From assembly GCA_977020255.1 (NCBI GenBank), contig CDROCS010000877.1, forward strand, positions 1 to 64,000: a stretch of DNA of 64,000 bases. Direction: 5' to 3'. The translations under genes were made by a program, and so were the position numbers. This document shows, piece by piece, positions 3,530-55,016 of the stretch; the first letter of the stretch is position 1, and every line of letters begins with the position of its first letter. The stretch comes from Obrimoposthia wandeli. Lineage: Eukaryota. The notes beneath the pieces were generated by a model. The model searched no databases, had not been told where the DNA came from, and was given only the letters and a program-made list of their open reading frames with translations.

Positions 3530-3544
3530 CAGTGCCGGCGTATG

Positions 3545-14007: not shown

Positions 14008-14060
14008 ATCACCTCTGATATCTTCATTCCTCTCTGCACTATACTGCTCTAATGACGCTG

Positions 14061-28766: not shown

Positions 28767-28945
28767 CAGTAATTATTCACCTGTAAGGGTATTCATTAAA
28801 ACATGTTTTTGAGAGAGACCGACACCGAATCACTTATAGATGCATTATTTAAAAGCTTGGAAAGGTACTATTATAGGTGAAGCGTGAAATTTTCGGTGAC
28901 CGGACACCCTTATAGGTGGGACCCCTTATAGGTGAATAATTACTG
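28767..28945. mobile_element. 179-bp Tc1/pogo-type MITE, present only in the left arm
   Basis: TIR CAGTAATTATTCACCT(G/A)TAAGGG, TA duplication; the right arm shows the empty site GATTCATTACAGTTCAATC. Confidence 0.88.
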
Positions 28946-28959
28946 TACAGTTCAATCAT

Positions 28960-29330
28960 CGAACTGATCACTGCCAGATGTCTTATAGGGTCTACCTTTC
29001 ATCACAAATCCCAATACGATCCGAATTGGATCATTTGTTGCCCAAAAGAAACCCGTACCATTTGTTTTCTTGTGGCATACACCTGTCAAATTCAATTTAC
29101 TTTCCAATTACTTGTAATGAAACGGCCTTCAAATCAGTTGATCAGCTTCAACTGAAGTCTTCAAGTATTGGTACGTTTACTGTTATTACCCTCTTCACCT
29201 TCAAAGTCCTTTTCTTCACCCCTAGACATCTGAACCAACGTCCAAACATGCTTTTAACAATGCTGATGCACGTTGGTATCGTGGGTTGTTCACGATGATT
29301 CGCGTCCCATCTTGAACTAACTACTTCGAT
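28960..29330 (-). pseudogene. Possible piggyBac transposase core fragment
   Basis: Broken frames give FEGRF and CMPQENKWYGFLL, resembling FKGR..YMPxKPxKWGFK; mirror copy at ~57960-58320. Confidence 0.4.
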
Positions 29331-29989
29331 ATTTTTCCAGATCTTTCTTACCTGCCTGTCATATTGTCAAAAATTAATTTGAATTACAAATAAACTTATA
29401 GATTAGTAGATAAATGTAGATAAAAATTTTATAATAAATTCACCAACTTTTAATAAAATCCGCCTTTTATTGACAATGTAATTTCTAATCGTATTAAATA
29501 TACTTCGGATGTTACCCTAAGGACACCGAGCTTTAATCAATTAAAAAATATAATTTAAAACCAACTTGAAAGCTGCAGAAAATGAGATTTTATTGCAGTA
29601 AAGATTGTTTCCGTGTCGAAAATCGACCAATCTTAGACGCTATCAAAATGCGAAGATGTCAAGAAAATTGAGCTTAAAGATTCAGGCGTGTAAAACTCTA
29701 TTATCATGGAGTAGAAATGAGAAACGTAAACATGTATGAGTTCGATAAATACAAATGCAGCACAAACGCAGCGCAAACGCAGTAACAATGAATTGACAAC
29801 CAAAGACCAAAAGTAGAAACACAAACGGTTGCCGTTATGTCACACAGCACACATTTGGACTGGTTTTGAGTTACGTAATAAGGCAATACCCATAAATTGG
29901 TGCTTCAGCTAATTCTAATTTGAATTTCAACTTGAAACTTTCGGCAACTGTTGATAACTTAATTGATAATTAATCATAAGTAATTTTTA

Positions 29990-30599
29990 TGTATATCAAT
30001 AAAAATTCACAGTCGAATATCAAACTGTCACTATCAAGTTTTAGTCGTTTCCTCGATTCCACTCACTTTGCAAATAAGAAAGTTGAAATCCTCAACAGCG
30101 TCGTCGCCCAGCAGGAATTTAGCTAGCAATTCGCATTTCTTGTGAATTGGGCCCTGCAAAAGAAAATAAGTAACCAAAGTTTAAGGGAAAACTCCCAAAT
30201 TGACACCTCCGAACATTAAAATAATATATTTTTAGAAAAGGTAGATATTTATAAGACACCATTCATAACTGCTAAATACCGGTAAAGTTGAGGAATTTTC
30301 AACTAATTGATCAAATTGGTCATTTTCCGTCCATGAATGAACATAAATACCGTACGAGATGCAAACAATGTCAAATCCTAACCCAAACAAATTGTCTTAA
30401 ATGTGACGTTCATTTGTGTATTCGTCCTGAACGAAATTGTTTTTGGAGTATCATGTATAAATTAATTCACGTATACCCATTGGTTATCAGTGTATCCAAT
30501 AGGATACATGCTAGATAAGGGTGTTCATAATATATTCTTGAAATCTTTTTATTCTTTTGTTATTTATTTTTTTTAAAAACTGGTAACTGAAAGGGTTAA
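29990..30599 (+). mobile_element. piggyBac remnant: transposase fragments, C-terminal Cys-rich domain and right end
   Basis: SRFLDSTHFAN; DQIGHFP..RCKQC..CLKCDVHLC..NCF; terminal ..AAAGGG followed by TTAA (30596-30599). Confidence 0.75.
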
Positions 30600-32280
30600 A
30601 TGCTCTGAAATAGTTAAAGTTTCATCAGAAACTTGATTTAAAGAATTATTTTTGTATTAACAAAAAAGCTAGACTAACTTTTCATATTAATAAAACTTAA
30701 ATTAATTTTTTTTTCAATTTCAAAATATACTCAAACTATTTAAAATTACATGCTCAAAATGTTTCATTAATTATTTTCTTTTATAAAAGACAAAAGAATA
30801 TTATGCATAAATTCGTCAATTTAAAATTATGAACACATAAATGTAAAATGATTAAGATTGAAGGAAATAAATTGAGATTATTTCCTTGTTAATGTTGTTT
30901 TAATAAAATTCTTCTGGTAATATTTATTGTCTGAGCTGAGTTTAAGAAAAACGGTTTTTGGCGTCAATTTCAATGGGCATGCCCACATTAATAACTGATT
31001 CAAAGTGATTTATAACCATTTGTTTGAATTTAGTTTTCGAATTCTTCTATCTTTGATTTCTTCGTCTCTCTTTCTTTAAAATGTTGTAACGAATTAAGGT
31101 TGGAGAAGAAATTATGAAGTGCGTGTCAAGAATATGGTCTTTCTCGTCTATGGATCGTGATTTCAATATTATGATCGGTTGGAGTCTAACTGAAAAATAC
31201 CAAAATACCAAAATTACGACATCACCAGATTTGTTCACTTCTCACTCCAATCATCTAAACAGGGAGAATTGTCGATAGCATTGCCGATACCTTAAATCCT
31301 ACCTGAGAACAGTTAGACCACCAAAAATACCTAAATCCAACAAAATATATTTATTCAGAAATGTTAAGGGGAAAAAAGTCTAATTAAACTAAATAAACGG
31401 ATCAAAGCGAATAAATCGTTTTTTTCTTTCCAATATTAGACAATTTTCAAGCATTGATATAGATTAAACAGCTATTTTCTTTTGTCAATTTAGAAAATAC
31501 AGATATTCAATCGACTTATATTCGTCACTGCTGCCACTGGGCTGGGTCAGGTTCAATCATGTTAACTTTCAACACCAACTCAGCTTGTCGGCAATGAGAC
31601 TGAATCTCAACCGCTGTTGGGTCTCAGTGGGTCCCCAAAGAGGTCAATTCATTAACTCGTAACTAATGGAAATGCAGTCTAAAGTGCTTAATTTAACTGT
31701 CCTGTATGGGCAAAAAATCCGCCTCCCTCCAACTGTAGTCATTGTTCATTGTTTAGTCTCTAAGCACCTTCTAAATCCATGCTGTTGGTTCAATTGCAAA
31801 CAAATCAGATTTAGAGCTCCGGATAATGTTCCATTTTACACGCGACACAGTGACCAACAAGCACATATGCCTAAATAACGTCATTCCACCATATGATGGT
31901 GAAATTGAAGTTGTAAACATTGTCAAGTATCTCGATACTTCAGTATCTATGCGTGCACTAATCGATAAAACTGTATGCACCAGCTCAGCAAAATCGTACT
32001 CGCAGTACTCAAAGGTTTCGACAATCTTATAAGGGTTATTTTAGTTAAAAAGGATTTTTTCTAACTTCTGGAAAAATTGTTTAGAAATTCGTTTTTCCCC
32101 CGTATTTGAAAGGTTTGCTTAAGTACATGTTACACCTAGTGAATGCTTTGTGAAGGTTCAAATACAATTTGAAAACAAATTCAAACGAAAGGTATCAACT
32201 GTCCCTAACGTGAACACTACTTTGCAGCAGTACATTTTCTTACCTTCAATACAAACTTGCTAAAATACGTCATCTTATTC

Positions 32281-32402
32281 AGTCGGGATTCAGCCGGGGT
32301 GCAGTCGGGATTCAGCCACGATTCAACCGGGATTCAACTAGGATTTAGCCGGGATTCAGCCGGGATTCAACCGGGATTCAGCCGGGATTCAGTCGAGATT
32401 CG
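32281..32402. repeat. 11-bp GC-rich minisatellite (AGCCGGGATTC)n, ~11 units
   Basis: Direct reading of the units. Confidence 0.9.
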
Positions 32403-34959
32403 AAAAAGAAATCACTGAGTAATATGACTCTGATGGAACTGATATTTGGCAAGCAAGTTGTGATCGATGTCTGGGCAACATTTACAAAGTTTCATTCACA
32501 GATATTAATTACTTCCGGAGATTCTAAATCAGTTAAGTAGGGAAAAAGTGAATAAATGATTCCCGAGGACAGAATATTTTTAGGATGTTATTAAAATAAA
32601 AAATAAAAGCTTTAAAATCAACAAATGAAATTCACTTTGATGCTCACCTATGATGAACTGATGATACAAAATATTTACCAAAGAAATGCAAATAAGAGAA
32701 AATTTGCTGAGATTTATAAAGTCACCTTATAGAATTTTGTTTCCCCAATATTCTGGGAATAAGGGTTTATGAAATCCCACTTTCGGTCTCTGATGCTCAT
32801 TTTCACTTTTCGTTATTGCGATATTTAGTTGTGGAACTGCCGGTCGTTCCAGCTTTACCCGGAAATATCTCCGGGAATAATTAAAATTGGAATGAAATTT
32901 GGAAAATGGTGGCCAGACATGGAACACTCCTTAAAATATCGAATTAATACATATGTCACTAGTCTAAATAATGTATTAATCAAAAGTTCTTTTAAAAATA
33001 TTGAGTTTCTTAATTAAATCATCTGATAAAAATAAACAAAACAATAAATTGACGCTCTAAAATTATCGAGTCGATGAAGACCGCTTTTGTAAGTATAACA
33101 CATTTGAGGACAAATTGCATATATTATAGGATGCTATTAAAGTGAGAAATGGTATGTCGAAATCAAACAAATCTGTTTGACGTTTGTGCATGCAATTAAC
33201 AATTTCTTTTCTAGAGTTTCACAAGAAACATGGTCTTCAAAAAAACCGTTTTTGATATTTTCTCGTTTTTACAATTTTTTTTCTAAAAACTCATTTTCTC
33301 TGACAGCTCTTTATCTCATTATCAGTATACCAATTAATCTTAGAAAATGTATTGTTATGAACCACTTGTAACGAACAACAATATAATAATTTACTATCTG
33401 TGACAGGTCTTCTGATTTGCATGAAGCGGAAATGTGAAATGTCTAATGTTAGATTGGATTTCCAGTATCTCTAATTGAAGGGTCTGGATTCCAGTAGCAA
33501 TAAAGTAAATATATAAGCAGAGTCATTTGTGCATTAAACATACCAAAAACAACAAACAAATACCTTTAAAAATTATTTGCAAATCTTCTGGAAGAAATAT
33601 AAACGGTAATCGTAAGTTTGATTTTTTAAAATATACTTTAAATAGTTTATAAAACTCTAATTTAGTTATTTTTATCATTTGATAAACTTTTTTTAAATCG
33701 AACTCTCGTCCCATCTGTTGAGTTGTACTACAACATTTTAATATTTGATTTTGATTCTTTGTATTATTCTACTTATCATAATTTACTAGTTTGTATTTGA
33801 ATACATTATTAATAAGTAAAACATACAGCGTTTTGATTTATACTCAGAAATATATTATTACTTTGGTAAAACCCAACACATACAATCAATATGAAAATAT
33901 TAAAGTGTCCTGTCAAAGAATTTTTCTTCTTCTAAATTTGAACAAACTCACCTACACGCTTGTATTAAAGCTCTTATGCGTAAAGGCATTTTGGTCATGG
34001 CTTTAAAAAGTCCATTCTATTTTCAAGTACAGGTGGTTTCAAAGGAAAAAAAGTAATGTGTATTATAGTATGTTTTAAACACTTTATACCACATCTCCTG
34101 AAATTTTTTATGAAGATTCCTAATTTTGCAAAATTACCAACGCAATGTATGATTATCAGAATAAACCTCAGAGCTTTTAATATAATACTACAGACTGAAA
34201 AAGCGCAACACCTAAACACCTTCTTCCACAAGAGCGCTGTGTTTTGAATACAATATAATCATAAACTACTGAAACGTTCACATAAAAACCAGTTTAAAAA
34301 ATCAAATTACTTTATTTGATTTGCTTTATATATATATGTTATACTTCAATGGACAATTATAGTTGAGATTTTATATTATCTTATTATTGATCAAATTCCA
34401 AAGTTTATAAAAATATCTGAGAATCCAATTATATGTAAAAATCCAATCCAATCTAAATCCAATTATATCTATTGTGAAATAGAGAATATATTGTCGAGCA
34501 TAAAAGTATAAGAGCTTTTAATATAGTAGACACGAAAACTCAATAAGACCATAACTTTATTGATTAGAATTTAAATTTAAAAATCATATCATAGTAACCT
34601 CACCAACGATGGATTATCATAATTCCATAATAATAATAACAAATTAATTATTATTATTACCACAACACATTATGATCCCCACCATCACCAATCATCACCA
34701 CTATCATCATTACAATTACCACATATTTTGACCTCATTATAAAACCAATGCTTACTTTCATTATTCAGCATTGGCCATGTTAACAACTTTTAACAATTAA
34801 ACAACTGTATTCATCCTACGAATAAACCACTGATTTACAACAACTGATTTATTCCTATCATCTAATTTTATTAGACATGAATATTGATGAATAAGTTTTA
34901 TTATTATCCCGTATTTAAAAGTGTGTTTATCCTTAAACTTAATCCTCACTCTCTCGCCC

Positions 34960-36754
34960 TTTTTAAAAACTCCGAGTTCCTTGGCTTGGAAGTAATTTGG
35001 GTTTGTGGTTTAAATTAAATTCTTGGCTTCTAAACGCTCTGCCATTATCAGTTACAATCCGTTTCGGTATACTACATAGGGAGAATAAGGAATTTAAATT
35101 AACAATACTATTAGTGGCATCAGCTTTTCTGATTTTCGTCGCAAATGGGTATCTAGAATGCCAATCTATGACCGTAAGGAATGTATATACATTTAATATA
35201 TTAGAAAGTCCTATAAAATCCGAAGCTATCGTGTCCAACACCATATTTATCAATGGTTCTACAGTTTTCATTGGAGCCAGTTTTTCTGCAGTAAAATGCG
35301 CACAGGTGTTGCATTTATTAACAAACTCCTTTATATCTTTGCTCATATATGGCCACAAACAGTAACTTTTGATTAACTCCGTTAGCTTAACCATTCCAAT
35401 ATGCCATTCATGTCCGATGTTAAAAATATTCTTACGTAATTTCAATGGTATGTAGATTCTATCATCGAATCTTAGTACATCTTCTATGAACGATATATTA
35501 TCCTTAATACCTATGTACTTTGCAGCTGGTTTATTATCAAAAACTTATTTTAACTCTGCAAACATGCTATCAGTTTCATTAGATTTCTTCACATCCTCAA
35601 ATGATACGAATCCATGATTATTAATCAAGCATACCATTCATGTTTCACCTTCTTGCTTTGAAGCTTTATTTAATGAAATAGGTAACCTCGATAAGTTATC
35701 TGCTATCTCGTTTTTCTTTCCTTTTATATGTTTTACATCGAAGGTATAATTCTGTTGTCTTGTTAACTATCTTTGTATTCTTGAATTTGACTTATCAATG
35801 GATTTTCTGAAAAAGGATATAAGTGGCATGTTATCTGTAGATAACCTAAATTTCCTGCCAATAAGAAAGTTTTTCAGTTGTTCAATTCCAAACAACACCA
35901 TTAAACATTCTTTTTCAATTTGTGAGTACCTTATTTCCGCGTCATTTAATTTTAGTGAGACATAAATAATAGGATGATTATCTTTAATAAAACAGCACTG
36001 AGCCCATAGCCACTGGCATATGTTCTAAGTTCCACTTTTTACTCATTATTAAATAATTTCAAAGGGTTTATAATTGATTATTCATGTTTCATTTTTATAA
36101 ACTGAGATTCATGGCTGTCTTTCCATACAAAAACATCTTTCTTCATAATATCCCATAAATCTCAAACTAACTCCGAATAGCCTTTACAGAACTTCTGACT
36201 CACATATCCTGCTAAGCCTAAAAAACTTCACAATTCATTGTGATTCTTCGGCGTTAGATATGCCTTCAATTTATCACATTTATCTTTCGTTGGTTTCAAT
36301 CCGTCAGCACATAACAAATGTCCTAAAAATTTAACAGTTCTTTTACAGTATTCACATTTTTCTTCGTTAATACACACATTGTATTCTTTGAATCTCTTTA
36401 ATAACTTCTTTAAATTATATCATGTTCTTATACAGTTTTTGAAAATACTAATATGTCGTCAACATAACATAGTACTCATTCTAATTCAGCAATAACGTGC
36501 TCCATGCACTTTTGAAAATTTTCAGGTGTGGAACTAAGTCCAAACGGCAGTCGTTTATACCGTTAACGGCCAAATGGTGAGCAAAACACAGCATATTTCC
36601 TTCTCTTGTTATTAAATAAAATCTGGTGATAGCCCTTTTTAGCATCCAGTAAAGAAAATATCTTTGCTCCGCCAAGCCTTGCCATTACTTATCGAAACGC
36701 TGGCATTTGAAATGGTACCCATTTAATGGCTTTATTTATATGTCTACAGTCGAT
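34960..36754 (-). pseudogene. pol: Decayed ordinary Ty3/gypsy pol (RT-RNase H-integrase), truncated at the CIDYR motif by the Polinton end
   Basis: IDCRHINKAI; YVDDILVFS; LRSFLGLAGY; TDASGYGL; EKECL..; HEWHIG..CNTC; VIDWHSRYP..TDNGRAF; many stops. Confidence 0.85.
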
Positions 36755-37289
36755 AGTAGGTGGATGTGTCCGGTCTAATCCACACCCCCTACTGTCCTTT
36801 AAAATCGTGCATGTGTGTGGAGTGAAATTTCGTGCATGTGTGTGGAGTGAAAATTTGTGTATGTGTGTAAGGAATTTTTTTTTGAAAAATTAAAAGAAGC
36901 AACGAATAGGAGGGAGGGTACTCCTGTTCTTTAAAACCGTGCATGTGTGTGGAGTGAAATTTCGTGTATGTGTGTGGAGTGAAATTTCATGTATGTGTGT
37001 CTCCATTCCACCCAAAGGGGGAAGGAGGGGCCCCCCTTCATTTAAAAAAAATTACTTTGAAATTTACCTCGAATCTCAAAAGTGGTTAGAGAAGACCACG
37101 GGAATCCATATTGAACCCGGCGGCTTATCGCAGATGAGATTTCAAATAATATATTACTACTATTTTTAAGAAAGATTTTAGATTACTACATGTTAAATAT
37201 TTAGATCAGATTTATAAGAGAAATTAGAACTATATAATTAAGAGGAGAAAAAACAAAATACGAGTCAAAATTATTTTTCAAAACATTTA

Positions 37290-37694
37290 TTAAACATAAA
37301 ACAACATTTTGGCTTCACTCAAAGTCCAAAGAGGCGGCATTTTCTCGTCATCAGCAAAATATCCATTGAGACGTATTGAGATATTCCATAGTTCTTCATC
37401 TAGAATTGGAGCAATCAAATATCCTAGATAATCTTTAAAATCCAGACTGGGATCAGTTTCAAGCTCGAAACAATTTCCTTCATATACATAATCAGGAATG
37501 TAAAATCCCAAAATATTTTTCAATTGATCAATATCCGATGTTGTTAAAATTTCGATGAGATATTTATTCTCCACTTTTGATATTTTCACAGGATTCATAA
37601 CTCGTATAATTTGATGCCTCTTTAATATATTACATAGTTTTCCTTTTGAAATTCTTTCTGGATAATAAAAATTTACTACACATCTCTTATCCAT
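37290..37694 (-). CDS. Polinton hypothetical protein (mirror 47211-47585 +)
   Basis: ORF MDKRCV..; near-identical copy in the other arm. Confidence 0.55.
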   Translation of the reverse strand: MDKRCVVNFYYPERISKGKLCNILKRHQIIRVMNPVKISKVENKYLIEILTTSDIDQLKNILGFYIPDYVYEGNCFELETDPSLDFKDYLGYLIAPILDEELWNISIRLNGYFADDEKMPPLWTLSEAKMLFYV

Positions 37695-37828
37695 TCTAAA
37701 ATAAGGAAACTGATTAAAAACAATGTTTATAAAAAAATACATATAAGATACAAATATTTAAAAAATAAAACTGATTATTAAATGAAAGAAACGTAGTAAA
37801 ACCGATTACAATTTATTACACGCAAAAG

Positions 37829-38131
37829 TTAAAACATAGAAATATGAGCACGTTCAATTTTCCACATAGTCAACATTGTCCCCATTTCATTTTTCTTGTA
37901 ACCATAAAGTCGAATTGTTACAGTCCATTGCTTCTTTTTCGGAAATGCATCAATATCAACATATCTTCTATAGTCATCTAGAAATGCTTCATCGGGTCCT
38001 CGGATATAAAATTCGTTCTTATTGAAAGTAAAATTCGGAATTGCCTTTTCAACTTTCTGTTTAAGATATTGAAAAACTGGTTTTTGAATATTTGATAGAT
38101 AGTAGTTGAACTTGCTTCTTTCAATTGTCAC
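37829..38131 (-). CDS. Polinton hypothetical protein (mirror 46769-47089 +); shares W..TIRLxGY with the neighbouring ORF
   Basis: ORF open in both arms; QWTVTIRLYGY vs LWNISIRLNGY suggests a tandem paralog. Confidence 0.55.
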   Translation of the reverse strand: MTIERSKFNYYLSNIQKPVFQYLKQKVEKAIPNFTFNKNEFYIRGPDEAFLDDYRRYVDIDAFPKKKQWTVTIRLYGYKKNEMGTMLTMWKIERAHISMF

Positions 38132-38560
38132 AGGATTTACTAAAGCAATGAGTTAAGCCTTCTTCAAAAATCTGACTTTGTAATTGAAATATTGTTTCAC
38201 TTCTTCATATATATCCTTATCCGATTCTTCAAACATTTCTATATCTTTGCAATCGCTTAATACCCGTTGGCTATCGTCCATCGTTGATAATTGTCTTTGA
38301 TATGAATGCATTTACTGTGATTTGTCCTCCAAAAGCGCATTATTTTGTACTTATTTCTAACAAAGACATGAATCTCATTGGTTAATATAACTAAAGCATT
38401 GAATTTGATTGGACTAAATCCATATTAAAAATCAAATTTGATTGGAAGAAATATATCATCCAATTATAATAGGTTTGCAAGATAATTGCAAGAAACGTGC
38501 AATAAAAAAGCAGGTTCAGACATATATAAAGAAGATTTTACAGAATACAATTTTAGTCTA

Positions 38561-39060
38561 ATGAAACTCGTAAATATAAATTATAAAGGTAGAACAGATA
38601 ATGATGTTTCGTACTTAACATTCAATGAATGGAAGCCGAGACAAAATGTGTAAAAGTTTGACAAATTCACAGTTGTCATTTTTCTAACAAGTTATATATA
38701 TATATTTTTTCATATTGAATTCTTTTAGGAAATTGTCGTGATATGGGATGCAAAATAACAATGCTTGGGTTCAATTTACCATTTGGAATTCGAATCACTG
38801 CAATACAATCAATCACGATTTCGGCTAATCTTGGGAAACAGATAAATCTTTTTAAAACTGCAGAGAAAATGAAAGAAGAATGCATGTTTGAACCAGAAAT
38901 TTTTCCTGCTCTCAGTTATTTGAAGTTTAAACCGTTATGTGTAAATATATTTTCGAGTGGTAAAGTTATGAAATTGGGATTGAAAATTTTTGATTATCCA
39001 GACATTGTTGATTTGATTTTAGAAAATATATCTTATTACATCTTGTTATCTTTTCTTTAA
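38561..39060 (+). pseudogene. TBP-like (TATA-binding protein fold) gene with a 38-nt GT-AG intron (38691-38728)
   Basis: Repeat 1: LVNINYKG..FTVVIFLT[G]xCRxMGCK; repeat 2: IQSITISANLG..INL..FEPEIFPALSY..KPLCVNIFSSGKVMxLG. Exon 1 contains a stop. Confidence 0.75.
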
Positions 39061-39398
39061 ACAAACCCGTTTAAACTTATTGTTTCAAATGAATAATACT
39101 ATAAATAGAGACAATGAAGTGGATCGTCTTGCCGACGAAATATTTTCTTGAAAAATTAGGGGTAAAGAAATTTTATCAGAATTAAAAAATAATGATATAA
39201 CAAGAGATAACATTGAAATATTGGTTAGATCACACATTATTCGAGAATTTAGAAATCATACACAAATAAATAAAATTATAGCCAAATATTCATTAATTAA
39301 TTTTTGTATTTCATCTACAATAGCTCTAACATTGTACATTTCAATAAGGAAACTTTTATGATAATATAAACAATATTAAAAATGAAAGAGTATATGCA

Positions 39399-39999
39399 AT
39401 GGAGCTAAATAATAATGCTGTATTTCAAATAGTTGGTCCCAGTGGAAGTGGAAAGACACATTTCGTATGTAAATTGTTGCAAAATGAATCTCTTTTCAAA
39501 TCTAGTTTCAAAATTATTTATTGCCATCATGGTGGAGAAGGGGAAAGCGTGTTAACCAAAACAGAAGTTTGCAAGTTGAAGGGAATAAAATTTATTGAAG
39601 GATTTGATGCAAATTGGTGTGAAAGATTGAAAAAAGAAGATGTAATAATAATTGATGATTTGTATTGCAAGACATCGTGAAGTAACAGTTATATTTATCA
39701 CTCAAAATCTTTTACACCAAGGATGTCACCATAGAACTAAAAATCTTAATGTAAATTACTTAGTTTTATTTAAAAATCCTGGAGATCAAACAGTTGTAGA
39801 TTTCGTGGCCAGACAGGCGTTTTCACAAAATAAGAACTTTCTAGTTGATTCATTCCACGATGCTGCTAAACAAGCACATGGGTATATATTTATTGACTTT
39901 ACACAAGCTTGCCCAGATGATTTACGTGTTTTAACATACATATTTAATTCTAAAGGAGTAATTGTTTATAAACAAATAGAGAACAATTATAAAAAATAA
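39399..39999 (+). pseudogene. Polinton packaging ATPase (A32/FtsK-HerA type), frameshifted
   Basis: GPSGSGKT; IIIDDL; ARHREVTVIFITQNL; YLVLFKNP; GYIFIDF. Confidence 0.9.
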
Positions 40000-40536
40000 A
40001 TTTGCAATGCCTTTTACGAATTTGATAGTAAAACGTAAAGTAAAATCTAAGAAATCAAAAAAAAGAATCATTAAGAAAAAAGAAGTGAATAAATTAATCA
40101 AATCTGTAGTTAGAAATAAAAGAAAACTTAAATGGCTTCGAATATAAACAATATTCAAATTGAACCTTTTTATTAAAATAAAGAAAATACAAAGAAGCAT
40201 ACCCTATTTTAAAGCTTTGGTCAAAGCCTCTTCTCATAAGATAATGATTATTCTTAAAGCATTTCCATCTTTTGTTGTAGATGATTTATTGGAAGTTTTG
40301 TATAATATAGTTTTAGGTTGAGTAAAAGTTGGAAAACGGAAAATTGTATTAAAGAAATATAGAAAATCTCTTCAGGATATTGATAATGTAAAAAGTAAAA
40401 AAAAGAAAACGAAATATTATTCTTAAACATAATGATGGTTTCATAGGGGTTGTTATTCCAGTTGTTGCTTCAATTATCAGTAGTATTATAGCTGCGACAC
40501 GTTCATAAACAGTTATTTCTAAAATCAGCTAAGGAT

Positions 40537-41600
40537 ATGGGTGCTTTTTTTTATTCTATCTATTCAAATTGTTGTAAAGTAGAAGATAAGGTTCAATCCA
40601 AAAGATCCAATTGGCTACACAGGAGTTTCAAAATGAGCAAAAAGAACAAAACAGAATTACAAGAAAACGCAGAAATGGCTGAGCGATCAGTTAGCCTACA
40701 GTCTAAACAAACCGATGAGAAGGTTTCCAACTAGAGCTTACAAAACCAGCGGTCCTAATAATTGATGGCAAATGGATTTGATGGAGATGATTCCATATTC
40801 TTCCATTAATAAGGGATACCGATATATTTTAACATGTATTGATGTATTTAGCAGGTTTTCTCGTGTAATTCTAGTTAAAGCAAAGTCTTCAATAGCTATG
40901 CTTGAAGCCATTAAAGAAATATTAATAGAGGACATTCCACAAAATGTGCAAACTGATTTATGAAAAGAATTTTATAATAAGCAAGTTCAATCATTATTTA
41001 AACAAAATAATATAAATCATTACTCTGTGTTTTCACAGTACAAAGCAGCAATAGTAGAAAGATTTAATCGTACTTTAAGAGATCGAATAAAAAAGTATTT
41101 CACAAAAGAAGGAAATAAAAAATGGATCCAAGTTTTACCTAAAATAATACATGCATATAATCACTCTGAACATAGAGGTCTCAAGGGAATGAGACCTGTT
41201 GATGTTACTAATAAAAACTCTATGGATATTTGGATGGACAGGAATAAAAAGGAAAATATTGAAAAAGCTAAATATAAGAAAAGCCAATATGTTCGAATTT
41301 CAAAAATTAGCTCTACTTAATTTATTAGAAACTTTGATCAGAATTGGAGCGATGAAATATTTTGTATAAGTAAAATTGATCAAAAGAGTAATCCAATAAT
41401 GTATACCGTTAAAGATGCTGACAATAATATCGTTCACGGTAAATTTTACGAGCAAGAACTACAAGTTATATCAAATAAACCTAGCGTTTTCCGTATTCAA
41501 AAAAATATTAAAATCTAAGGGTGCCGGTAAACATAAACAATAATATGCTAAATGGCATGGTTATTCAGATTCAACTTTAATATCAGCATCTAATATAATA
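40537..41600 (+). pseudogene. Polinton retroviral-like integrase with C-terminal chromodomain-like tail
   Basis: WQMDL..YRYILTCIDVFSRF..VQTD..EFYNK..KAAIVERFNRTL..YNHSEH; VRISK..NWSDEIF..GKFYEQELQ; AKWHGY; several stops. Confidence 0.9.
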
Positions 41601-42650
41601 TGAAGTCTATGTATATGGTTTTACCTAGTAACGGATGCCCGAAGACTCAACCAGATAATGACGCTAGTAGCTTTATTATCGATTGGGAAAATCCTATAAA
41701 TCTCCAAGGAGAATGGGAAGCGGCTTTAACAGAATTTTTCTTTTATTATTCTCCAATTACTATCAGAAGAAACTCGCATATTTCGTTTACAAAAAAATTA
41801 TATCATGAAAAAACAACTGAAGTTGTGATCGGGTTTGAAAGTAAAGGAAAATTCTATTACATATAGATAAAGAAGTGAAAGTAATATATGAAAAAAACAA
41901 AGTCAGATTTAAAAATCGACTAAAACATTTTACTAAACCTATTCAAATTATATTTGGATCTGATAGAGAAGCTCTTCAATTCGGTTTTGACAGTGAACAT
42001 GTAGTAGGTTTGAAGAAATCTGATATAGCCTCATCTAAATCGTTTTAAAATGTTCTTGATAGAGTAACAAAAGTGTTTTTAGTTGAAACGAGATCAAAGT
42101 ATGTAGTGGAACTGAAAAGGTTTTCAAAAGATTATAAAATAGATATTGAAGTGAACTTATGTATATTAATACAGAAGGAGTGTAGTGAATATTTGGATAA
42201 ATGTGTAACATTAAAAAAATGATAAATTAACGTTTACAATAAAGAGCAATATAAAACGGGTTTCATTTGATGATAAACTCGCTAAAAACCTCGGTTTAAG
42301 CAGAAATACCTTTGAAACCCATACAATAAAAACCATAAAAGTTAAAAAATTAAGCAAAACCTTTAAATGCTGTTAATAATTTATATATTTATACTAATTT
42401 AAAAGAACCAACGCTTGTAGGAGGACAACGAGTTCCACTTTTGAGAACAATATGGATATCTCAAAATGAAACTAAAGATGGGGACGTTGTCGATAGGCGT
42501 ATAGATCAACCAATGTATCTTCCAGTTGCTCTCTTTTCTACAAACAATATTGAAGTAAATATAAGAGATGATTCCGGACAACTTATAGATTTCACGTACA
42601 AGATTAACAAGTTCAAGACAAGTTTAACAATACATTTAAGAAAACAAAAT
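41600..42650 (+). pseudogene. Polinton minor capsid (penton) protein
   Basis: MVLPSN..PDNDASSF..INLQGEWEAALTE; C-terminal EPTLVGGQRVPLLR..MYLPV..IEVNIRDDSGQLIDF..TIHLRK. Confidence 0.8.
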
Positions 42651-42950
42651 GGTGAATCCGGCAATAATTGAAGCTTATAGTCAAAACTAACAAGGTGGAG
42701 AATTACCATATTTTGTTGGTAAACAATATGGATCTGGCTGGCTTAGAACATTAGGTAGATTTGTCTTTCCTCTTTTAAAGAGACTCGGGCAATTTGTATC
42801 AAAATTAGGAAAGAATTATCTTTCATCTAAGGACAATAAACTAATACCAACTTTTAAGAAGCATGTACTTAATGAACTTGATAATGTTTTACCTGACGTT
42901 GCTAATTTAATTAGAAAAGGTAAATCAAATAAAAGCCAAGAAGGTAGTGA
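42650..42950 (+). pseudogene. Conserved small Polinton virion-associated protein
   Basis: QGGELPYFVGKQYGSGWLRTLGRFVFPLLK resembles the QxGG..F.G..Q.GxG..L.R..PL protein found between penton and major capsid. Confidence 0.6.
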
Positions 42951-43770
42951 ATTTAAACGTAAAAACTCGCAAAGAATGGATTGCAGAATCTAAAGCTTAT
43001 GAAATGTGTGGGTCTATGAGATTGAATTTCTTTGAACAACCGAAATATTTAGTTCTCGGTATTAATGTACATCTTCGTTTGAAACATAATAAATTAGATT
43101 TTTCTTTGATAAGCACAGACGTTCTAAAACCTAGACTTGATATTTAGGATGCAAAATTATATGTCCTAAGAGTTAAAACCGAGCAATCAGTTTTAATGAC
43201 ACATAATATAGGAATGGAAAAAAAGAATGCTTGTTATCCTATTAGAGAAACAAAACTTATAACCTACTCTTTAGGTACGGGTACACCAGCTTTTAATAAG
43301 GATCAAATTTTTGGTGATGTAAGATTACCGAAATTAGTTTTAAATTCTTTTCAGAAAACTGCAAAGTTTCTAGGAAATTATACGACAGATGTAACTCAAT
43401 TTGACAATCTTAATATATGTTCAGTGACTCTTTTAAGAAATACTGATTATCGTGAAACATATAAAACAGATTTCGAAGGTAACGCTTATGCTTTGGTTTG
43501 TACGCAATCTATTATTAGCAATTTAGGTCAACTAGATAAAAATAAAACAATAGTATTTCTTTTACTGAGTTTAAAAACAATTGTCCGTTCTTCACATTTG
43601 TTTTGGCACCAGACTTTGATATAAAACAATGCCAACTACCAAAGGATGGAAATTTACGACTAGAAATTAAGTTCAATGTAGCTTTAACACATCCTACAAC
43701 GGTGCTTTTTTACAGAGTATTTGATTCGGAAATACAAATCAATAAAAACCGAACTGTCATATTATAGAAT
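42950..43770 (+). pseudogene. Polinton major capsid protein (double jelly-roll), C-terminal part
   Basis: FFEQPKYLVLGINV..DAKLYV..ACYPI..LPK; in a shifted frame VLAPDFD..GNLRLEIKF..VFDSEIQINKNRTV. Confidence 0.8.
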
Positions 43771-43829
43771 GAAGTAAGAAATTTTTTAAATTAATATTTA
43801 TTAATTTTTATTTAGTTCAGTACAAGTAC

Positions 43830-44140
43830 AAGAATCAGCAGAGAAGGTCCTGGGTGATAAATTCAATGGAGTTTATCCTATTGATATGATTCCATTTTTT
43901 CAATCCGGAGGTTACATTATCAATACTCATACTTCGAATTAACCACGAGAACATTGGATAGCTATTTATGTTAGAGAGTGGACAATACATGTATTTGATC
44001 CACTTGCAATGCATTATCCACACAAACTTGTTTCGACTGTACAAAAAGAACGAAGAAGAGTATTTTACAACAAGATACAATATCAGGATCCGGTGACGAG
44101 AAACTGTGGACATTTAAGTATTTGCAAAACGATAAATATG
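43830..44140 (+). pseudogene. Adenain-like cysteine protease
   Basis: GVYPIDMIP..IINTHTS..PREHWIAIY..VFDPL..YQDPVTRNCGH (His, Asp, Gln, Cys positions). Confidence 0.82.
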
Positions 44141-44906
44141 TTATAATAATAAATATTTTTTAAAAACTTGTTTTATTTTGAATTTTTTTAAAAACCTACT
44201 TAAATAAAATATAAAAGTAAAATAATAAAAGACATACGACGAATTTTTTTGATTACATTTATTAAACACAATATCACAACAAGATCTGTCAGCAAAGATA
44301 AGGCCCAACCTAAAAAGTATTGAAATAACAAAAAGTTAGAGTCTAGGTGCCATAGGGATCTAAAATTTTAATAAACTAAACTAAAAAATTGAAAATTGAA
44401 AACTGTTTAAATTCGGAAGTGTCCATAAGCCAGGCTAGCGTTCTTTTAACAACTGGAATAACAGCCCCTATGAAACCACCATTATGTTTAAGAATCATAT
44501 TTCGTTTCCTTTTTTTACTTTTTACATTAGCAATATCCTGAAGAGTTTTTCTATATTTCTTTAATACAATTTTCCGTTTTCCAACTTTTACTCAACCCAA
44601 AACTATATTATACAAAACTTCCAATAAATCATCTACAACAAAAGATGAAAATGCTTTAAGAATAATCATTATCTTATGAGAAGATGCTTTGACCAAAGTT
44701 TTAAAATAAGGTATGCTTCTTTGTATTTTCTTTATTTTAATAAAAAGGTTCAATTTGAATATATTCGAAGCCATTTAAGTTTTCTTTTATTTCTAACTAC
44801 AGATTTGATTAATTTATTCTCTTCTTTTTTCTTAATGATTCTTTTTTTTGATTTCTTATATTTTACTTTACGTTTTACTATCAAATTCGTAAAAGGCATT
44901 GCAAAT

Positions 44907-45509
44907 TTATTTTTTATAATTGTTCTCTATTTGTTTATAAACAATTACTCCTTTAGAATTAAATATGTATGTTAAAACACGTAAATCATCTGGGCAAGCT
45001 TGTGTAAAGTCAATAAATATATACCCATGTGCTTGTTTAGCAGCATCGTGGAATGAATCAACTAGAAAGTTCTTATTTTGTGAAAACGCCTGTCTTGCCA
45101 CGAAATCTACAACTGTTCGATCTCTAGGATTTTTAAATAAAACTAAGTAATGCACATTAAGATTGTTAGTTCTATGGTGACCTCCTTGGTAAAAAAGATT
45201 TTGAATGATAAATATAACTGTTACTTCACGATGTCTTGCAATACAAATCATCAATTATTACTACATCTTATTTTTTCAATCTTTCACACCAATTTGCATC
45301 AAATCCTTCAATAAATTTTATTCCCTTCAACTTGCAAACTTCTTATTTTGGTTAACCGGCTTTCCCCTTCTCCACCATTATGCCAATAAATATTTTTTGA
45401 AACTAGATTTGAAAAGAGATTCATTTTGCAACAATTTACATACGAAATGTGTCTTTCCACTTCCACTGGGACCAACTATTTGAAATACAGCATTATTATT
45501 TAGCTCCAT
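44907..45509 (-). pseudogene. Mirror copy of the packaging ATPase
   Basis: ORF 44907-45254 plus the upstream Walker A region; FKNPRD retained. Confidence 0.88.
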
Positions 45510-45847
45510 TGTATATACTCTTTCATTTTTTAATATTTTTATATTATCATAGAAGTTTCTTTATTGAAATGTACAATGTTAGAGCTATTGTAGATGAAAT
45601 ACAAAAATTAATTAATGAATATTTAGCTATAATTTTATTTATTTGTGTACTATTTCTAAATTTTCGAATAACGTGTGATCTAACCAATATTTCAATGTTA
45701 TCTCTTGTTATATCATTATTTTTTAATTCTGATAAAATTTCTTTACCCCTTATTTTTCCAGAAAATATTTCGTCGACAAGACGATCCACTTCATTGTCTC
45801 TATTTATAGTATTATTCATTTGAAACAATAAGTTTAAACGGGTTTGT

Positions 45848-46345
45848 TTATAGAAAAGATAACAAGATGTAATAAGATATATTTTCTAAAATCAAATCAA
45901 CAATGTCTGGATAATCGAAATTTTTCAATCCCAATATCATAACTTTACCACTCGAAAATATATTTACACACAGCGGTTTAAACTTCGAATAACTGAGAGC
46001 AGGAAAATTTTCTGATTCAAACATGCATTCTTCTTTCATTTTCTCTGCAATTTTAAAAAGATTTATCTGTTTCCCAAGATTAGCCGAAATCGTGATTGAT
46101 TGTATTGCAGTGATTCGAATTCCAAATGGTAAATTGAACCCAAGCATTGTTATTTTGCATCCCATATCACGACAATGTCCTAAAAGAATTCAATATGAAA
46201 ATAAAATAAAAAACTAACCTGTAAGAAAAATGACAATTGTGAATATTTAAAACTTTTACACATATTGTCTCGGCTTCCATTCATTGGAAACATTCTTAAC
46301 ATCATTATCTATTCTACCTTTATAATTTATATTTACGAGTTTTAT
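45848..46345 (-). pseudogene. Mirror TBP-like gene; intron 46180-46217 with GTTAGT donor
   Basis: Splicing joins ACA G|GA to give VIFLTGHCRDMGCK. Confidence 0.75.
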
Positions 46346-47993
46346 TAGACTAAAATTGTATTCTGTAACATCTTCTTTATATATGTCTGAACCTGCTTTT
46401 TTATTGTACGTTTCTTGTAATTATCTTGCAAAGCTATTATAATTAGATGATATATTTCTTCCAATCAATTTTGATTTTTAATATAGATTTAGTCCAATCA
46501 AATTCAATGCTTTAGTTATATTAACCAATGATATTCATGTCTTTGTTAGAAATTAGTATAAAAGAATGCGCCATTGAAGGACAAATCACAGTAAATGCAT
46601 TCATATCAAAGACAATTATCAACGATGGACGATAGCCAACGGGTATTAAGCGATGACGAAGAAATGAATGAAGAATCGGATAAGGATATGTATGAAGAAG
46701 TGAAACAATATTTCAATTACAAAGTCAGATTCTTGAAGAAGGCTTAACTGATTGCTTTAGTAAATCCTGTGACAATTGAAAGAAGAAAGTTCAGCTACTA
46801 TCTATCAAATATTCAAAAACCAGATTTTCAATATCTTAAACAGAAAGTTGAAAAGGCAGTTCCGAATTTTACTTTCAATAAGAACGAATTTTATATCCGA
46901 GGAGACGAAGAAGCATTTCTAGATGACTATGGAAGATATGTTGATATTGATGCGTTTCCGAAAAAGAAGCAATGGACTCTAACAATTCGATTTTATGGTT
47001 ACATGAAAGATGAAATGGGAACAGAGTTGCCTATGTGGAAAATTGAACGTGCTCATATTTTTATTTTAACTTTTTTCTATTGCGTGTAATAAATTGTAAT
47101 CGGTTTTACTATGTTTCTTTCATTTAATAATCAATTTTATTTTTTTAAATATTTGTATCTTATGTGTATTTTTTATAAACATTGTTTTTAATCAGTTTCC
47201 TTATTTTAGAATGGATAAGAGATGTGTAGCAAATTTTTATTATCCAGAAAGAATTTCAAAAGGAAAACTATGTAATATATTAAAGAGGCATCAAATTATA
47301 CGAGTTATGAATCCTGTGAAAATATCTAAAGTGGAGAATAAATATCTCATCGAAATTTTAACAACATCTGATATTGATCAATTGAAAAATATTTTGGGAT
47401 TTTACATTCCTGATTATGTATATGAAGGAAATTGTTTCCAGCTTGAAACTGATCCCAGTCTGGATTTTAAAGATTATCTAGGATATTTGATTGCTCCAAT
47501 TCTAGATGAAGAACTATGGAATATCTCAATACGTCTCAATGGATATTTTGCTGATGACGAGAAAATGCAGCTCTTTGGACTTTGAGTGAAGCCAATATGT
47601 TGTTTTATGTTTAATAAATGTTTTGAAAAATAATTTTGACTCGTATTTTGTTTTTTCTCCTCTTAATTATATATTTCTAATTTTCTCTTATAAATCTAAC
47701 CTAAATATTTAACATGTAGTAATCTAAAATCTTTCTTAAAAATAGTAGTAATATATTATTTGAAATCTCGTCTGCGATAAGCCAATATGGATTCCCGTGG
47801 TCTTCTCTAACCACTTTTAAGATTCGAGGTAAATTTCAAAGTAAATTTTTTTTTAATGTAGGGGGGCTCCCTCCTTCCCTCTTTGGGTGGAATGGAGACA
47901 CACATACACGAAATTCCACTCCACACACATGCACGATTTTAAAGGACAGTAGGGGGAGGGGGGTGTGGATTAGACCGGACACATCCACCTACT

Positions 47994-50780
47994 ATCGACT
48001 GTAGACATATAAATAAAGCCATTAAATGGGTACCATTTCAAATGCCAGCGTTTCGATAAGTAATTGCATGGTTTGGCGGAGCATATATATTTTCAGTACT
48101 AGATGCTAAAAAGGGCTATCACCAGATTTTATTTAATAAAAAGAGAAGGAAATATGCTGTCTTTTGCTCACCATTTGGCCGTTAACGGTATAATCGACTG
48201 CCGTTTGGACTTAGTTCCACACCTGAAAATTTTCAAAAGTGCATGGAGCACGTTATTGCTGTATTAGAATGAGTACTATGTTATGTTGACGACATATTAG
48301 TATTTTCAAAATCTGTAGAAGAACATGATACAATTTAAAGAAGTTATTGAAGAGATTCAAAGAATACAATGTGTGTATTAACGAAGAAAAATGTGAATAC
48401 TGTAAAAGAACTGTTAAATTTTTAGTACATTTGTTATGTGCTGATGGATTGAAACCTACGAAAGTAAAATGTGATAAATTGAAGGCATATCTAACGCCGA
48501 AGAATCACAATGAATTGAGAAGTTTTTTAGGCTTAGCAGGATATGTGAGTCAGAAGTTCTGTAAAGGCTATTCGGAAATAGTTTGATATTTATGGGATAT
48601 TATGAATGAAGATGTTTTTGTATGGAAAGATAGCCATGAATCTCAGTTTATAAAAATGAAACATGAATTATCAATTATAAACCCTTTGAAATTATTTAAT
48701 AAGGAGTTTAAAGTGGAACTTAGAACAGATGCCAGTGGCTATGGGCTCAGTGCTGTTTTATTAAAGATAATCATCCTATTATTTATGTCTCACTAAAATT
48801 AAATGACGCGGAAATAAGGTACTCACAAATTGAAAAAGAATGTTTAATGGTGTTGTTTGGAATTGAACAACTGAAAAACTTTCTTATTGGCAGGAAATTT
48901 AGGTTATCTACAGATAACATGCCACTTATATCCTTTTTCAGAAAATCCCTTGATAAGTCAAATTCAAGAATACAAAGATAATTAACAAGACAGCAGAATT
49001 ATACCTTCGATGTAGAACATATAAAGGAAAGAAAAACAAGATAGCAGATAACTTATCGAGGTTACCTATTTCATTAAATAAAGCTTCAGAGCAAGAAGGT
49101 GAAACATAAATGGTATGCTTGATTAATAATCATGGATTCGTATCAGTTGAGGATGTGAAGAAATCTAATGAAACTGATAGCATGTTTGCAGAGTTAAAAG
49201 AAGTTTTTGATAATAAACCAGCTGCAAAGTACATAGGTATTAAGGATAATATATCGTTCATAGAAGATGTACTAAGATTCGATGATAGAATTTACATACC
49301 ATTGAAATTACGTAAGAATATTCTTAACATCGGACATGAAGGGCATATTGGAATGGTTAAGCTAACAGAGTTAATCAAAAGTTACTGTTTGTGGCAATAT
49401 ATGAGCAAAGATGTTGGGTTAAATAATTAATTGCATACATTAATTAATTAAAAAATTAATAAAAATTAATAAATATTTTTTGTCAATTAAAATTGACATT
49501 AACTGAAGTCCCCACAGTCAAGGAGGTTTTACTTGTCAGCATCCGACGGGGTGGACGTCTCGTTTCGCCTTGCCAGGCTCGTCAGGAAGGCGGCAAAAAA
49601 TGAGACGATTTTTTAAAAGCAAAGTTTTTTTCTGCCCAGCACTTTTGTCGGCGGTTCCTTTTGACTCGAGTGGATTCCAAGCCGATAACGTCAATCCGTG
49701 GATGCAGTATCTGCCGGTCACCAGATTCTTCGCCTCCTCGACATCCTCTCTCACCTTCCTCCCATTCCGGTTTTCTCCTCTGGCTGAGACTGCGGCCCTT
49801 ACAACAAAACTACCAACACTTATCTCTACCGCGTATCACACAAGGACTGTCTCCCTAACAGATATCAGCCTTCTGCAGGGCTGCAGCAACGATATTTACA
49901 TAACTACCGTGCCTGCAGTTTGTGTTGAAGCGCTCCCTCTATATCTCTCCCAGCTGTGCCTATGCATGAGTGTGTGTTTGTGCCGAGTCACTCTCCCCTT
50001 ACTGGATCTGTGACTCCCGTACATTCCCTCCTTTTCTCTGGCTGACCAGACGGCACAAGCTGTGTGTGTGCACGCTTTGCACCAATTCACTTCTACTGTG
50101 TTTGTGTGCGTGAATTCTCTATAAAAACAGCAGTGCTACAGCTGATTGACAGGATTGCTAAATCTCTAACAAAAATCAAATATATACAATTATTTAGAAA
50201 CATTGCGAATTTATCAAAATTATATTAGAATTTATTTGGATCATATTTGGATAAAGTCGCCATCACAGATAATCGACGACACAATTATTTAGAAATTACT
50301 GATTATCATTGCGAATTTATTAGAATTATAAATTGGAACAAATAAATCAAATTCTTGCCTTTTGAATTTTATTAACAAAGATATAAAGGAGTTTGTTAAT
50401 AAATGCAACACCTGTGCGCATTTTACTGCGGAAAAACTGGCTCCAATGAAAACTGTAGAACCATTGATAAATATGGTGTTGGACATGATAGCTTCGGATT
50501 TTATAGGACTTTCTAATAGATTAAATGTATATACATTCCTTACGGTCATAGATTGGCATTCTAGATACCCATTTGCGACGAAAATCAGAAAAGCTGATGC
50601 CACTAATAGTATTGTTAATTTAAATTCCTTATTCTCCTTATGTAGTATACCGAAACGGATTGTAACTGATAATGGCAGAGCGTTTAGAAACCAAGAATTT
50701 AATTTAAACCACAAACCCAAATTACTACCAAGCCAAGGAACTCGGAGTTTTTATAAAGGGCGAGAGAGTGAGGATTAAGT
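47994..50780 (+). pseudogene. pol: Mirror copy of the decayed gypsy pol, interrupted by a solo LTR
   Basis: ORFs 48347, 48602, 49110 and 50362 carry RT, RNase H and integrase motifs. Confidence 0.85.
49412..50377 (+). mobile_element. 966-bp solo LTR, present only in the right arm
   Basis: Starts TGTT, ends AACA; 4-bp TSD AAGA (49408-11 and 50378-81); TATAAAA at 50120; AATAAA at 50341; empty site in the left arm near 35340. Confidence 0.88.
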
Positions 50781-54814: not shown

Positions 54815-55016
54815 CGAATCCCGGCTGAATCCCGGCTGAATCCCGGTTGAATCCCGGCTGAATCTCGTCTGAATCCCGACTGAATCCCGGCTAAATCCCG
54901 GCTGAATCCCGGTTGAATCCCAGCTGAATCCCAGCTGAATCCCGGCTAAATCCTAGTTGAATCCCGGTTGAATCGTGGCTGAATCCCGACTGCACCCCGG
55001 CTGAATCCCGACTGAA
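54815..55016. repeat. Mirror minisatellite (GAATCCCGGCT)n, ~18 units
   Basis: Direct reading; longer than the left-arm copy. Confidence 0.9.

Follow-up and report, generated by a model that had tools for sequence, protein, structure and literature searches.

The Locus and Its Setting

The locus described here lies in a stretch of 64,000 nt (the window) at positions 1 to 64,000 of contig CDROCS010000877.1 from Obrimoposthia wandeli (assembly GCA_977020255.1). It is a decayed copy of a conserved gene of Polintons (adintoviruses), encoding a reduced TATA-binding protein of about 150 aa, here called mini-TBP. On the plus strand of arm A, exon 1 (38561-38690, 130 nt, ending in phase 1) starts with the ATG at 38561 and encodes a reduced N-terminal lobe. 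It is followed by a 38-nt GT-AG intron (38691-38728; 35-41 nt in other copies) and by exon 2 (38729-39060), which encodes the last strand of lobe 1 and a complete C-terminal lobe with an acidic stirrup, and which ends with the stop codon at 39060. This copy is broken by an in-frame TAA at 38651. The arm B copy (45848-46345, minus strand) has ATA at its start position 46345, two stops in exon 1 (46258 and 46249) and a 39-nt intron (46218-46180). A sequence-only reading of the DNA had described a protein-coding TBP gene at this place; both copies are pseudogenes, and the window thus holds a dead representative of the mini-TBP family only. Many other copies in the genome keep the open two-exon structure.

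The two arms form a giant inverted repeat (23084-40466 and 44448-64000), whose identity falls from 98.9% on the outside to 94.9% near the centre, and whose second arm reaches the end of the window. It could be a true palindrome with uneven conversion or an assembly fold-back. Since the arms are halves of one inverted repeat they are not independent evidence for the gene; such evidence comes from thousands of further genomic copies. The assembly has a size of 1.35 Gb and is evidently that of an animal, as it contains intron-bearing myosin genes and several TBP paralogues. An 18-nt probe for exon 1 and the splice donor has 7,315 matches in it, as against 5 for a control, and the assembly holds at least 7,315 mini-TBP copies. 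All of the 150 scored matches to exon 2 are 94-100% identical. About 31,000 candidates each for mini-TBP and for the packaging ATPase were seen at a first look.

The Polinton Element

The element begins with a terminal inverted repeat starting with AGTAG (36755-36843, plus strand), which matches both ends of other copies. AGTAG termini and a 6-bp target-site duplication were found in both of the genomic copies whose ends were compared, and other copies of the element span about 12 and 15 kb. At 36800-37000 there are subterminal 25-bp tandem repeats with a GTGTGTGGAGTGAAATT core, which are common to other copies and are a possible replication or packaging signal.

Downstream of the mini-TBP gene, all on the plus strand, follow a TATAAACA box (39365-39372) 33 nt before the start codon of the ATPase, the A32/FtsK-like packaging ATPase itself (39399-39999, located by tblastn to a genomic homologue; frame broken near 39660-39680), a broken rve integrase with a C-terminal chromodomain (40523-41600, from Pfam and homology), and remnants of a putative minor capsid gene, a small ORF, a putative major capsid gene and a putative protease gene (41594-44122, from homology to other copies). 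Within the putative major capsid gene about 480 nt are deleted near 42964. After the putative protease the element is cut off at about 44447, and the window has no pPolB; another copy of the same family matches PF03175 with 106 bits. The genomic homologue of the ATPase matches PF04665 with 27.8 bits (cut-off 22.8) and the integrase matches PF00665 with 46.7 bits, while its chromodomain scores 24.1 bits with PF00385, just below the cut-off of 25.1. The capsid and protease ORFs have no Pfam match; they are conserved and stand in the expected order, and their labels are our assumption from the usual gene order of Polintons. The termini, the 6-bp duplications and the ATPase, integrase and pPolB genes, found in the element or its copies, bear out the Polinton context that had been proposed.

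At least three Polinton families, with mini-TBPs about 52-57% identical, are found in this genome. In the second family a gene for an IAP (BIR and RING) lies directly 3' of mini-TBP, and a DEDDh exonuclease is also encoded. Such accessory genes were seen at the loci L052 (848-3943), L087 (225-719), L123, L125 and L143; a ubiquitin E2 is found in L087, and phospholipase A2, KilA-N, RING and C2H2 genes in the distant group. The window also contains a very large gypsy-type LTR retroelement (1784-16658, minus strand), which encodes a Monjiviricetes-type fusion glycoprotein, a BIR domain, two aspartyl proteases, a reverse transcriptase and a dual-specificity phosphatase. It resembles the giant Burro elements of planarians, which, taken with the short host introns, is a hint that the host may be a flatworm.

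The Divergent Neighbours

Two ORFs on the minus strand lie between the terminus and the mini-TBP gene. The first (37290-37694, 134 aa) is an open frame with a predicted OB fold of the T7 gp2.5/Enc34 type, and has an ATAAAC motif 36 nt upstream (37725-37730, minus strand). The second (37829-38311, 160 codons), which is divergent from mini-TBP, has an in-frame stop at codon 53. An AlphaFold model of a genomic homologue of this second paralogue (pLDDT 94.4) is best matched by T7 gp2.5 (Z 7.9, rmsd 3.3, 110 aligned residues), Enc34 SSB (Z 7.5) and ASFV CP312R (Z 6.3), with many giant-virus homologues; Z values below 8 are moderate, but the top four matches belong to one family. The two ORFs had been suggested to be further transcription accessories. 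Their modelled fold instead indicates paralogous ssDNA-binding proteins (SSB), that is, replication proteins. A word search for database relatives of this SSB family gave none, and the SSB query matched in 18/80 metagenomic mini-TBP loci. Some metagenomic Polinton SSB genes (L070, L077, L078, L105, L110 and others) appear by eye to have short GT..AG introns just before a conserved MxFLK exon, and the mini-TBPs at these loci are intronless.

The region between the second SSB gene and mini-TBP (38312-38560) looks like a divergent promoter region of host type. It contains CCAAT/ATTGG boxes at 38377, 38408, 38441 and 38460 and TATATAAA at 38523, and no ATAAAC.

The Intron in the Mini-TBP Gene

In the stretch scanned, the GT..TTTTAG segment at 38691-38728 is the sole GT..AG of 25-90 nt that joins the two frames. 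It had been read as 38 nt in both arms, which holds for arm A, the segment in arm B being 39 nt. The intronless 146-aa homologue P0001, 52% identical, crosses the junction without a gap. In the best 30 genomic loci, which were picked by exon-2 similarity so that intactness and indel counts are biased, the intron is 35-41 nt long and falls in all three mod-3 classes, with GT kept in 30/30 and AG in 29/30. Exon 1 is 130 nt in 24 of these copies and stop-free in 23 of the 24, and 20/30 copies have the ATG, both exons open and intact splice ends. When 24 copies were compared with one natural copy (omitting the reference, the window copy and four with a truncated exon 1), there were 21 indels per kb in the intron and 1.0 and 0.13 per kb in the exons, a contrast inflated by the homopolymer-rich intron and by the picking of copies on similarity.

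A second Polinton family in the same genome has a different intron of 35-43 nt at the same Gly codon and in the same phase (6 loci), while the mini-TBP of a third family is intronless (5 loci). Among 81 loci fetched from outside this genome 72 have single full-length ORFs, 8 are cut or broken, and one, the metagenomic contig L117, has a 40-nt intron at the same codon. The collinear intronless homologues, the free change in length and the same-codon introns in two other lineages are all comparative evidence, and they make it very probable that the intron is real, as first proposed. In a tree of the ATPases the two intron-bearing families of the genome are sisters (UFBoot 100, short branch), and L117 is placed elsewhere with weak support. 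A single clade for all three intron-bearing lineages is not rejected (AU p 0.26), and one intron gain can therefore not be told from several.

Nine host introns were measured, one of 47 nt in a TBP gene and eight of 46-85 nt in myosin genes, and the Polinton intron of 35-41 nt is shorter than all of them. A probe for the exon junction gave no exact and 35 one-mismatch matches in the genome; of four that were inspected, two are copies of the family matched at the acceptor end and two are unrelated, and the probe found no genuine intronless copy of the window's family. Four contig sets from one sample, of a kind not on record, have flat depth and are silent on expression; no joint at the intron is among the 15 joints listed, there being 1,161 more. 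The intron itself is a minor point, but families that share one genome differ in whether they have it at that codon, which illustrates how a virus-like element gains or loses introns.

The Mini-TBP Family

Exon 2 matches PF00352 in both arms (40.7 bits in arm A and 48.5 bits in arm B; cut-off 22.9), and 35 TBP sequences in the PDB are matched by it (best E 1.1e-11). Exon 1 alone, read with X at the stop, has no Pfam match, the C-lobe being the only part that scores. A search with P0001 gave 614 cluster representatives at E ≤ 0.001 and 102 at ≤ 1e-10, with canonical TBPs at the tail, and a profile search gave 408 proteins at ≤ 1e-12 among 1,712 candidates. PF00352 is matched by 68/68 family members. 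In metagenomes 167/417 pattern matches are relatives, and the best 80 of these 167 make up the metagenomic set, whose loci are related and come from few surveys. A core Polinton gene is present in 13/15 loci of at least 5 kb, in 27/36 of at least 3 kb and in 37/80 overall, in agreement with the expectation that related Polintons carry the gene. These Polintons fall into two deep groups, between which ATPase identity is only about 35%. Viral contigs in IMG/VR gave no mini-TBP with one alignment (A1), one weak match with another (A2) and no ATPase, and in the ESM Atlas only TBP-named clusters were found (recognition 1942, weak).

The structure was modelled for the intronless homologue P0001 rather than for the window copy. 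The model has a pLDDT of 96.9, and the top 44 Foldseek matches are all TBP entries. It aligns to human TBP over 146/146 residues (Z 13.7, rmsd 2.7), with model residues 1-146 corresponding to yeast 66-238. Together with the PF00352 match of exon 2 this upholds the proposed TBP fold, and the model shows that the family adopts the complete saddle of TBP, with both lobes. No helix separates strands 45-51 and 63-77 of the model, and H2 is deleted relative to TBP in hhalign; the N-lobe lacks the long helix and most of the short one. The protein had been called a two-repeat TBP, which is right for the β-sheet saddle and needs amending for the N-terminal repeat, where most of both helices are missing and exon 1 has no Pfam match.

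Over 48 pairs of intronless mini-TBP genes the median dN/dS is 0.15, a codon comparison which shows purifying selection on the family. A pN/pS of 0.23 for the window's family was set aside, as its copies had been picked by protein similarity. In a FastTree tree of TBPs (102 columns, 49 sequences; six distant metagenomic loci missed by the search pattern are omitted) the mini-TBPs stand on a long branch of their own, separate from the cellular TBPs and from the one host paralogue included. On the ground of this rough tree a recent capture from the host was rejected. Host TBP paralogues were seen on C238, C60, C1092 and C968 (L041-L046, L060-L064): two divergent head-to-head genes on C238, one of them with a 47-nt intron, two near-identical intronless TRF-like genes and one multi-exon gene.

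Residues Facing DNA and TFIIB

Residue statistics were taken from 201 full-length members of 267 proteins (median 157 aa, all TBP core). The register rests on hhalign and structure alignment, not on coordinates, and the list of DNA contacts in yeast TBP is that of Table 1 in PMC12529657. Three of the four phenylalanines that intercalate into DNA, F116, F190 and F207, are kept in about 100% of the proteins, as are P191 (90%) and N69 (96%). F99 is replaced by Pro in 98%. Further replacements are V122 to R (99%), T124 to M (100%), V71 to N (88%), N159 to S (90%), V161 to T (82%) and L205 to N (100%); T215 is mostly Leu (66%). The symmetric minor-groove contacts Asn69/Asn159 and Thr124/Thr215 are accordingly not found in mini-TBP, where N69 is the only one kept.

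The N-lobe of cellular TBP contacts the 3' half of the TATA box. On sequence comparison the N-lobe is also the most changed lobe of mini-TBP, and the C at position 7 lies in the half of the box described below that departs from the consensus. As a candidate reader of this variant box the invariant Arg at V122 suggests itself. Cellular TBP fits C-G pairs by Hoogsteen pairing only, which avoids a clash (PMC4402545), and on TATAAACG host TBP retains 27% activity in plant protoplasts (PMC10005294, Table 4).

The two glutamates of the C-lobe that bind TFIIB (C.L3.2 and C.L3.4) are Glu in 94% and 99% of the mini-TBPs. Passages of PMC7221094 describe this role in TFIIB binding, and report that viral TBPs have diverged at these positions and often bring their own TFIIB. 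No TFIIB Pfam match was found in the 41 and 16 element ORFs scanned.

A Sense-Strand Box Upstream of Polinton Genes

ATAAAC motifs were counted within 100 nt upstream of the first ATG, after near-identical upstream regions had been removed, and compared with dinucleotide shuffles. The motif precedes the ATPase in 23/23 cases (shuffle mean 1.9) and the putative major capsid in 10/10 (1.0), and also the minor capsid (6/7), the protease (3/4), the integrase (12/16), the small pre-capsid ORF (5/6) and the ORF after the protease (5/8). None of 100 shuffles equals the counts for the ATPase, capsid, protease, integrase and nearby-ORF classes. In reverse orientation the motif is found 0 times in each of these classes (0/23 for the ATPase and 0/10 for the major capsid). 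For mini-TBP, the 80 loci were reduced to 53 with 100 nt upstream and a match from the N-terminus, and to 40 after de-duplication; ATAAAC precedes the gene in 5/40 (chance 2.4; equalled in 7/100 shuffles). The count before SSB genes is 2/17. pPolB was kept outside the count, as its start codons could not be fixed.

The longer motif (T/C)ATAAAC is found in 31/33 against 1/40. The base before ATAAAC is T in 26, C in 8, A in 1 and G in 1 of 36 boxes, and the base after it is A in 31 and G in 5. GTAAAC occurs in 4/33 (1.2 expected; reached in 2/200 shuffles), and AATAAAC, in 2/33, is not enriched. Boxes are found anywhere from 6 to 98 nt before the first ATG, and 12/23 ATPase boxes lie 31-37 nt before the ATG. 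These counts show that a sense-strand (T/C)ATAAAC(A/G) sequence precedes most downstream genes and mostly not the mini-TBP gene. It is not limited to structural genes, as it is also found before the integrase, the first SSB paralogue and several unknown ORFs.

In the window's family the box precedes the ATPase in 25/26 copies scored. A further box, ahead of the ORF that follows mini-TBP, lies at the mini-TBP stop codon in 28/30 copies and is lost in arm A. Upstream of mini-TBP in the same family ATAAAC is found in 0/30, a TATA-like site no more than 60 nt from the start in 24/30, and CCAAT boxes are present. In the outside loci CCAAT (11/40, 5.8 expected) and canonical TATA (12/40, 6.4 expected) are modestly enriched before mini-TBP. 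At L067, L071, L095 and L117 the box that precedes the putative capsid gene often falls within the coding sequence of the gene before it, at its end, in Ser-Ile-Asn-Lys codons, so that the sequence there constrains two functions at once.

Searches in the genome itself (PF04665; a distant ATPase) showed no Polinton family lacking mini-TBP, and of three PF04665 loci two are relatives at 63% ATPase identity. Because no Polinton without mini-TBP was found for comparison, the box may be general to Polintons, with or without the protein.

A Possible Promoter Switch

The reading we favour, with a rough probability of 0.6, is that mini-TBP is an early, host-transcribed factor which turns host Pol II and TFIIB to viral YATAAAC promoters, much as TATT-binding proteins do in beta- and gamma-herpesviruses, though as a minimal protein acting on its own. 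The mini-TBP gene would be transcribed early from its host-type CCAAT/TATA promoter, and its transcript would be spliced by the host. The protein may then bind YATAAACR through its remodelled DNA face while the two kept glutamates recruit host TFIIB, and host Pol II would thereby be directed onto the packaging, capsid and integrase genes. The surface of the N-lobe that serves TFIIA, TAF1, Mot1 and Brf1 is predicted to be absent, which could let mini-TBP escape regulators acting on that lobe. Since the box also stands before the integrase and one SSB gene, 'late' may here mean 'everything after the switch'. The strand-specific YATAAAC box lends support to the earlier suggestion that the element supplies its own promoter-recognition factor. 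The loss of one of the four intercalating phenylalanines counts against a promoter switch, as do the occurrence of the box outside structural genes and its variable distance to the ATG.

A different account of the same observations is that YATAAACR is read by a host factor, either TBP or a paralogue working at low efficiency or a forkhead protein, and that mini-TBP is a decoy which soaks up TFIIB or dampens host transcription. ATAAACA fits the forkhead core consensus, and GTAAAC is slightly enriched (4/33 against 1.2); forkhead sites should however act in both orientations and favour GTAAACA, which is seen in only 4/33, while the box is strictly strand-specific (reverse 0/23 and 0/10) and in 12/23 cases is concentrated 31-37 nt ahead of the ATPase ATG. 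The host has several TBP paralogues, and host TBP tolerates TATAAACG at 27%, through C-G Hoogsteen pairs (PMC10005294; PMC4402545), but C is the first base of 8/36 boxes, and host TBP copes poorly with it. That the glutamates for TFIIB persist, whereas one Phe and Asn159 do not, speaks for a decoy, which would however have no need for the invariant new polar residues on the DNA face, and on balance we consider this account unlikely. Less probable still is that mini-TBP binds and bends DNA for replication, integration or packaging and that ATAAAC is an RNA-level signal for 3' end formation or translation, not a promoter. The mini-TBP gene does often adjoin an SSB gene (SSB query matched in 18/80 loci), and the box, which looks like AATAAA, is often found close to where the upstream gene ends. 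ATAAAC is nevertheless preceded by T or C in 34/36 and by A in only 1, AATAAAC is not enriched (2/33), and the keeping of both TFIIB-binding glutamates points to transcription.

Another possibility concerns the intron alone, namely that the 38-nt segment is unspliced, that an old insertion killed the gene, and that the lineage has spread on the protein of the intronless family. No spliced read was seen, the segment is shorter than the measured host introns, an intronless family resides in the same genome, and the junction probe found no real intronless copy of the window's family. We regard it as very improbable, as GT (30/30) and AG (29/30) are kept despite the free change in length, a different GT-AG intron is found at the same codon in two other lineages, both exons are open in 20/30 copies, and the lineage keeps the invariant residues of the family at about 52% identity to its intronless relatives.

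The promoter-switch reading can be widened to a large group of animal Polintons that would carry a one-protein switch, a stripped TBP of about 150 aa which is re-coded for YATAAACR, relies on TFIIB and Pol II of the host and has lost the surface on which hosts regulate TBP. This wider claim is tentative, the odds being slightly against it. If true, the switch would be a minimal orthogonal core-promoter system and evidence for a virus-like ordered expression programme in Polintons, and in the intron-bearing lineages host splicing would control it, in over 7,000 copies across the genome. Mini-TBP bears on how Polintons time their expression and on whether they have a viral life cycle in animals at all; with a promoter factor of their own and a box to match it, these questions become testable with one small protein and an 8-bp sequence. 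The box can also be used to locate gene starts in Polintons. The mini-TBPs are moreover a natural experiment on TBP specificity, with hundreds of sequences in which a quarter of the N-lobe and one Phe have been dropped and new invariant DNA-facing residues are kept.

Comparison with Known Systems

TBP genes in adintoviruses, including the mini-TBP family, are already labelled in the supplement of a public preprint from 2024. Supplementary file 2 of Buck et al. (PMC11071296) gives at least 27 'TBP' labels to adintovirus genes. Adinto18043_TBP, which lies beside the packaging ATPase, carries the motifs LF.SG.CRIMG, FEPELFPA and VNIFSTGK of the mini-TBP family, and Adinto13673 and uAdinto10926 resemble the family as judged by eye, without alignment. 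Other TBP entries there have a greater length, and in some cases a TFIIB-like 'Tiib' gene accompanies them; no such gene was found in the present elements. In the passages of the supplement these TBPs are labels only, without residue analysis, intron or promoter box, and TBP, TATA and promoter have zero occurrences in the main text. In Starrett et al. (2021; PMC8502044) TBP is met only in a legend on non-animal MELD viruses, and was not found in the supplement. Passages of PMC11071308, PMC12220804, 10.1101/2023.08.22.554363 and 10.1101/2025.02.07.637071 contain no description of a TBP or TATA box, while PMC10675990 mentions sporadic TATA-binding proteins in mirusvirus-like elements. A literature search leaving aside subscription papers and Repbase/GenBank annotations gave no description of the mini-TBP family, its intron or the Polinton ATAAAC box. 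The present analysis adds the intron with its distribution over the families, an estimate of copy number, counts of the box across both deep groups, a map of the residues, and the recognition of the neighbouring ORFs as SSB genes.

With cellular TBP, TRF and archaeal TBP the mini-TBPs share the two-lobed saddle (Z about 13), the stirrup YEPELFP and three intercalating phenylalanines. They differ in a core that is about 27 residues shorter, in the large loss of H1 and H2 from the N-lobe and in the remodelled DNA face. The TBP-like factors of NCLDVs and mirusviruses (HaV01 TBP, ASFV B263R) have a viral TBP fold in common with mini-TBP (BFVD), with at most 22% identity. NCLDVs often encode their own RNA polymerase, whereas a Polinton of about 12-15 kb does not. 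NCLDVs and mirusviruses also usually pair TBP with a TFIIB of their own (PMC7221094), and the 12-15 kb Polinton has no TFIIB.

A functional parallel would be the viral TBP folds KSHV ORF24, HCMV UL87 and EBV BcRF1, which read TATT together with host Pol II (PMC12529657). These mimics share with mini-TBP polar replacements at V122, V161 and L205 (PMC12529657), while herpesvirus proteins rank low in the structure search with mini-TBP (E about 8e-3). KSHV ORF24 has 752 aa, additional domains for binding Pol II and DNA, and all four phenylalanines, as against about 150 aa and no F99 in mini-TBP; it operates within a viral complex of several proteins and is predicted not to bind TFIIB (PMC12529657), whereas mini-TBP keeps the TFIIB glutamates, with no viral partner detected. 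Lacking the large multi-domain build, mini-TBP is not a member of the herpesvirus vTBPs, and at most works alike.
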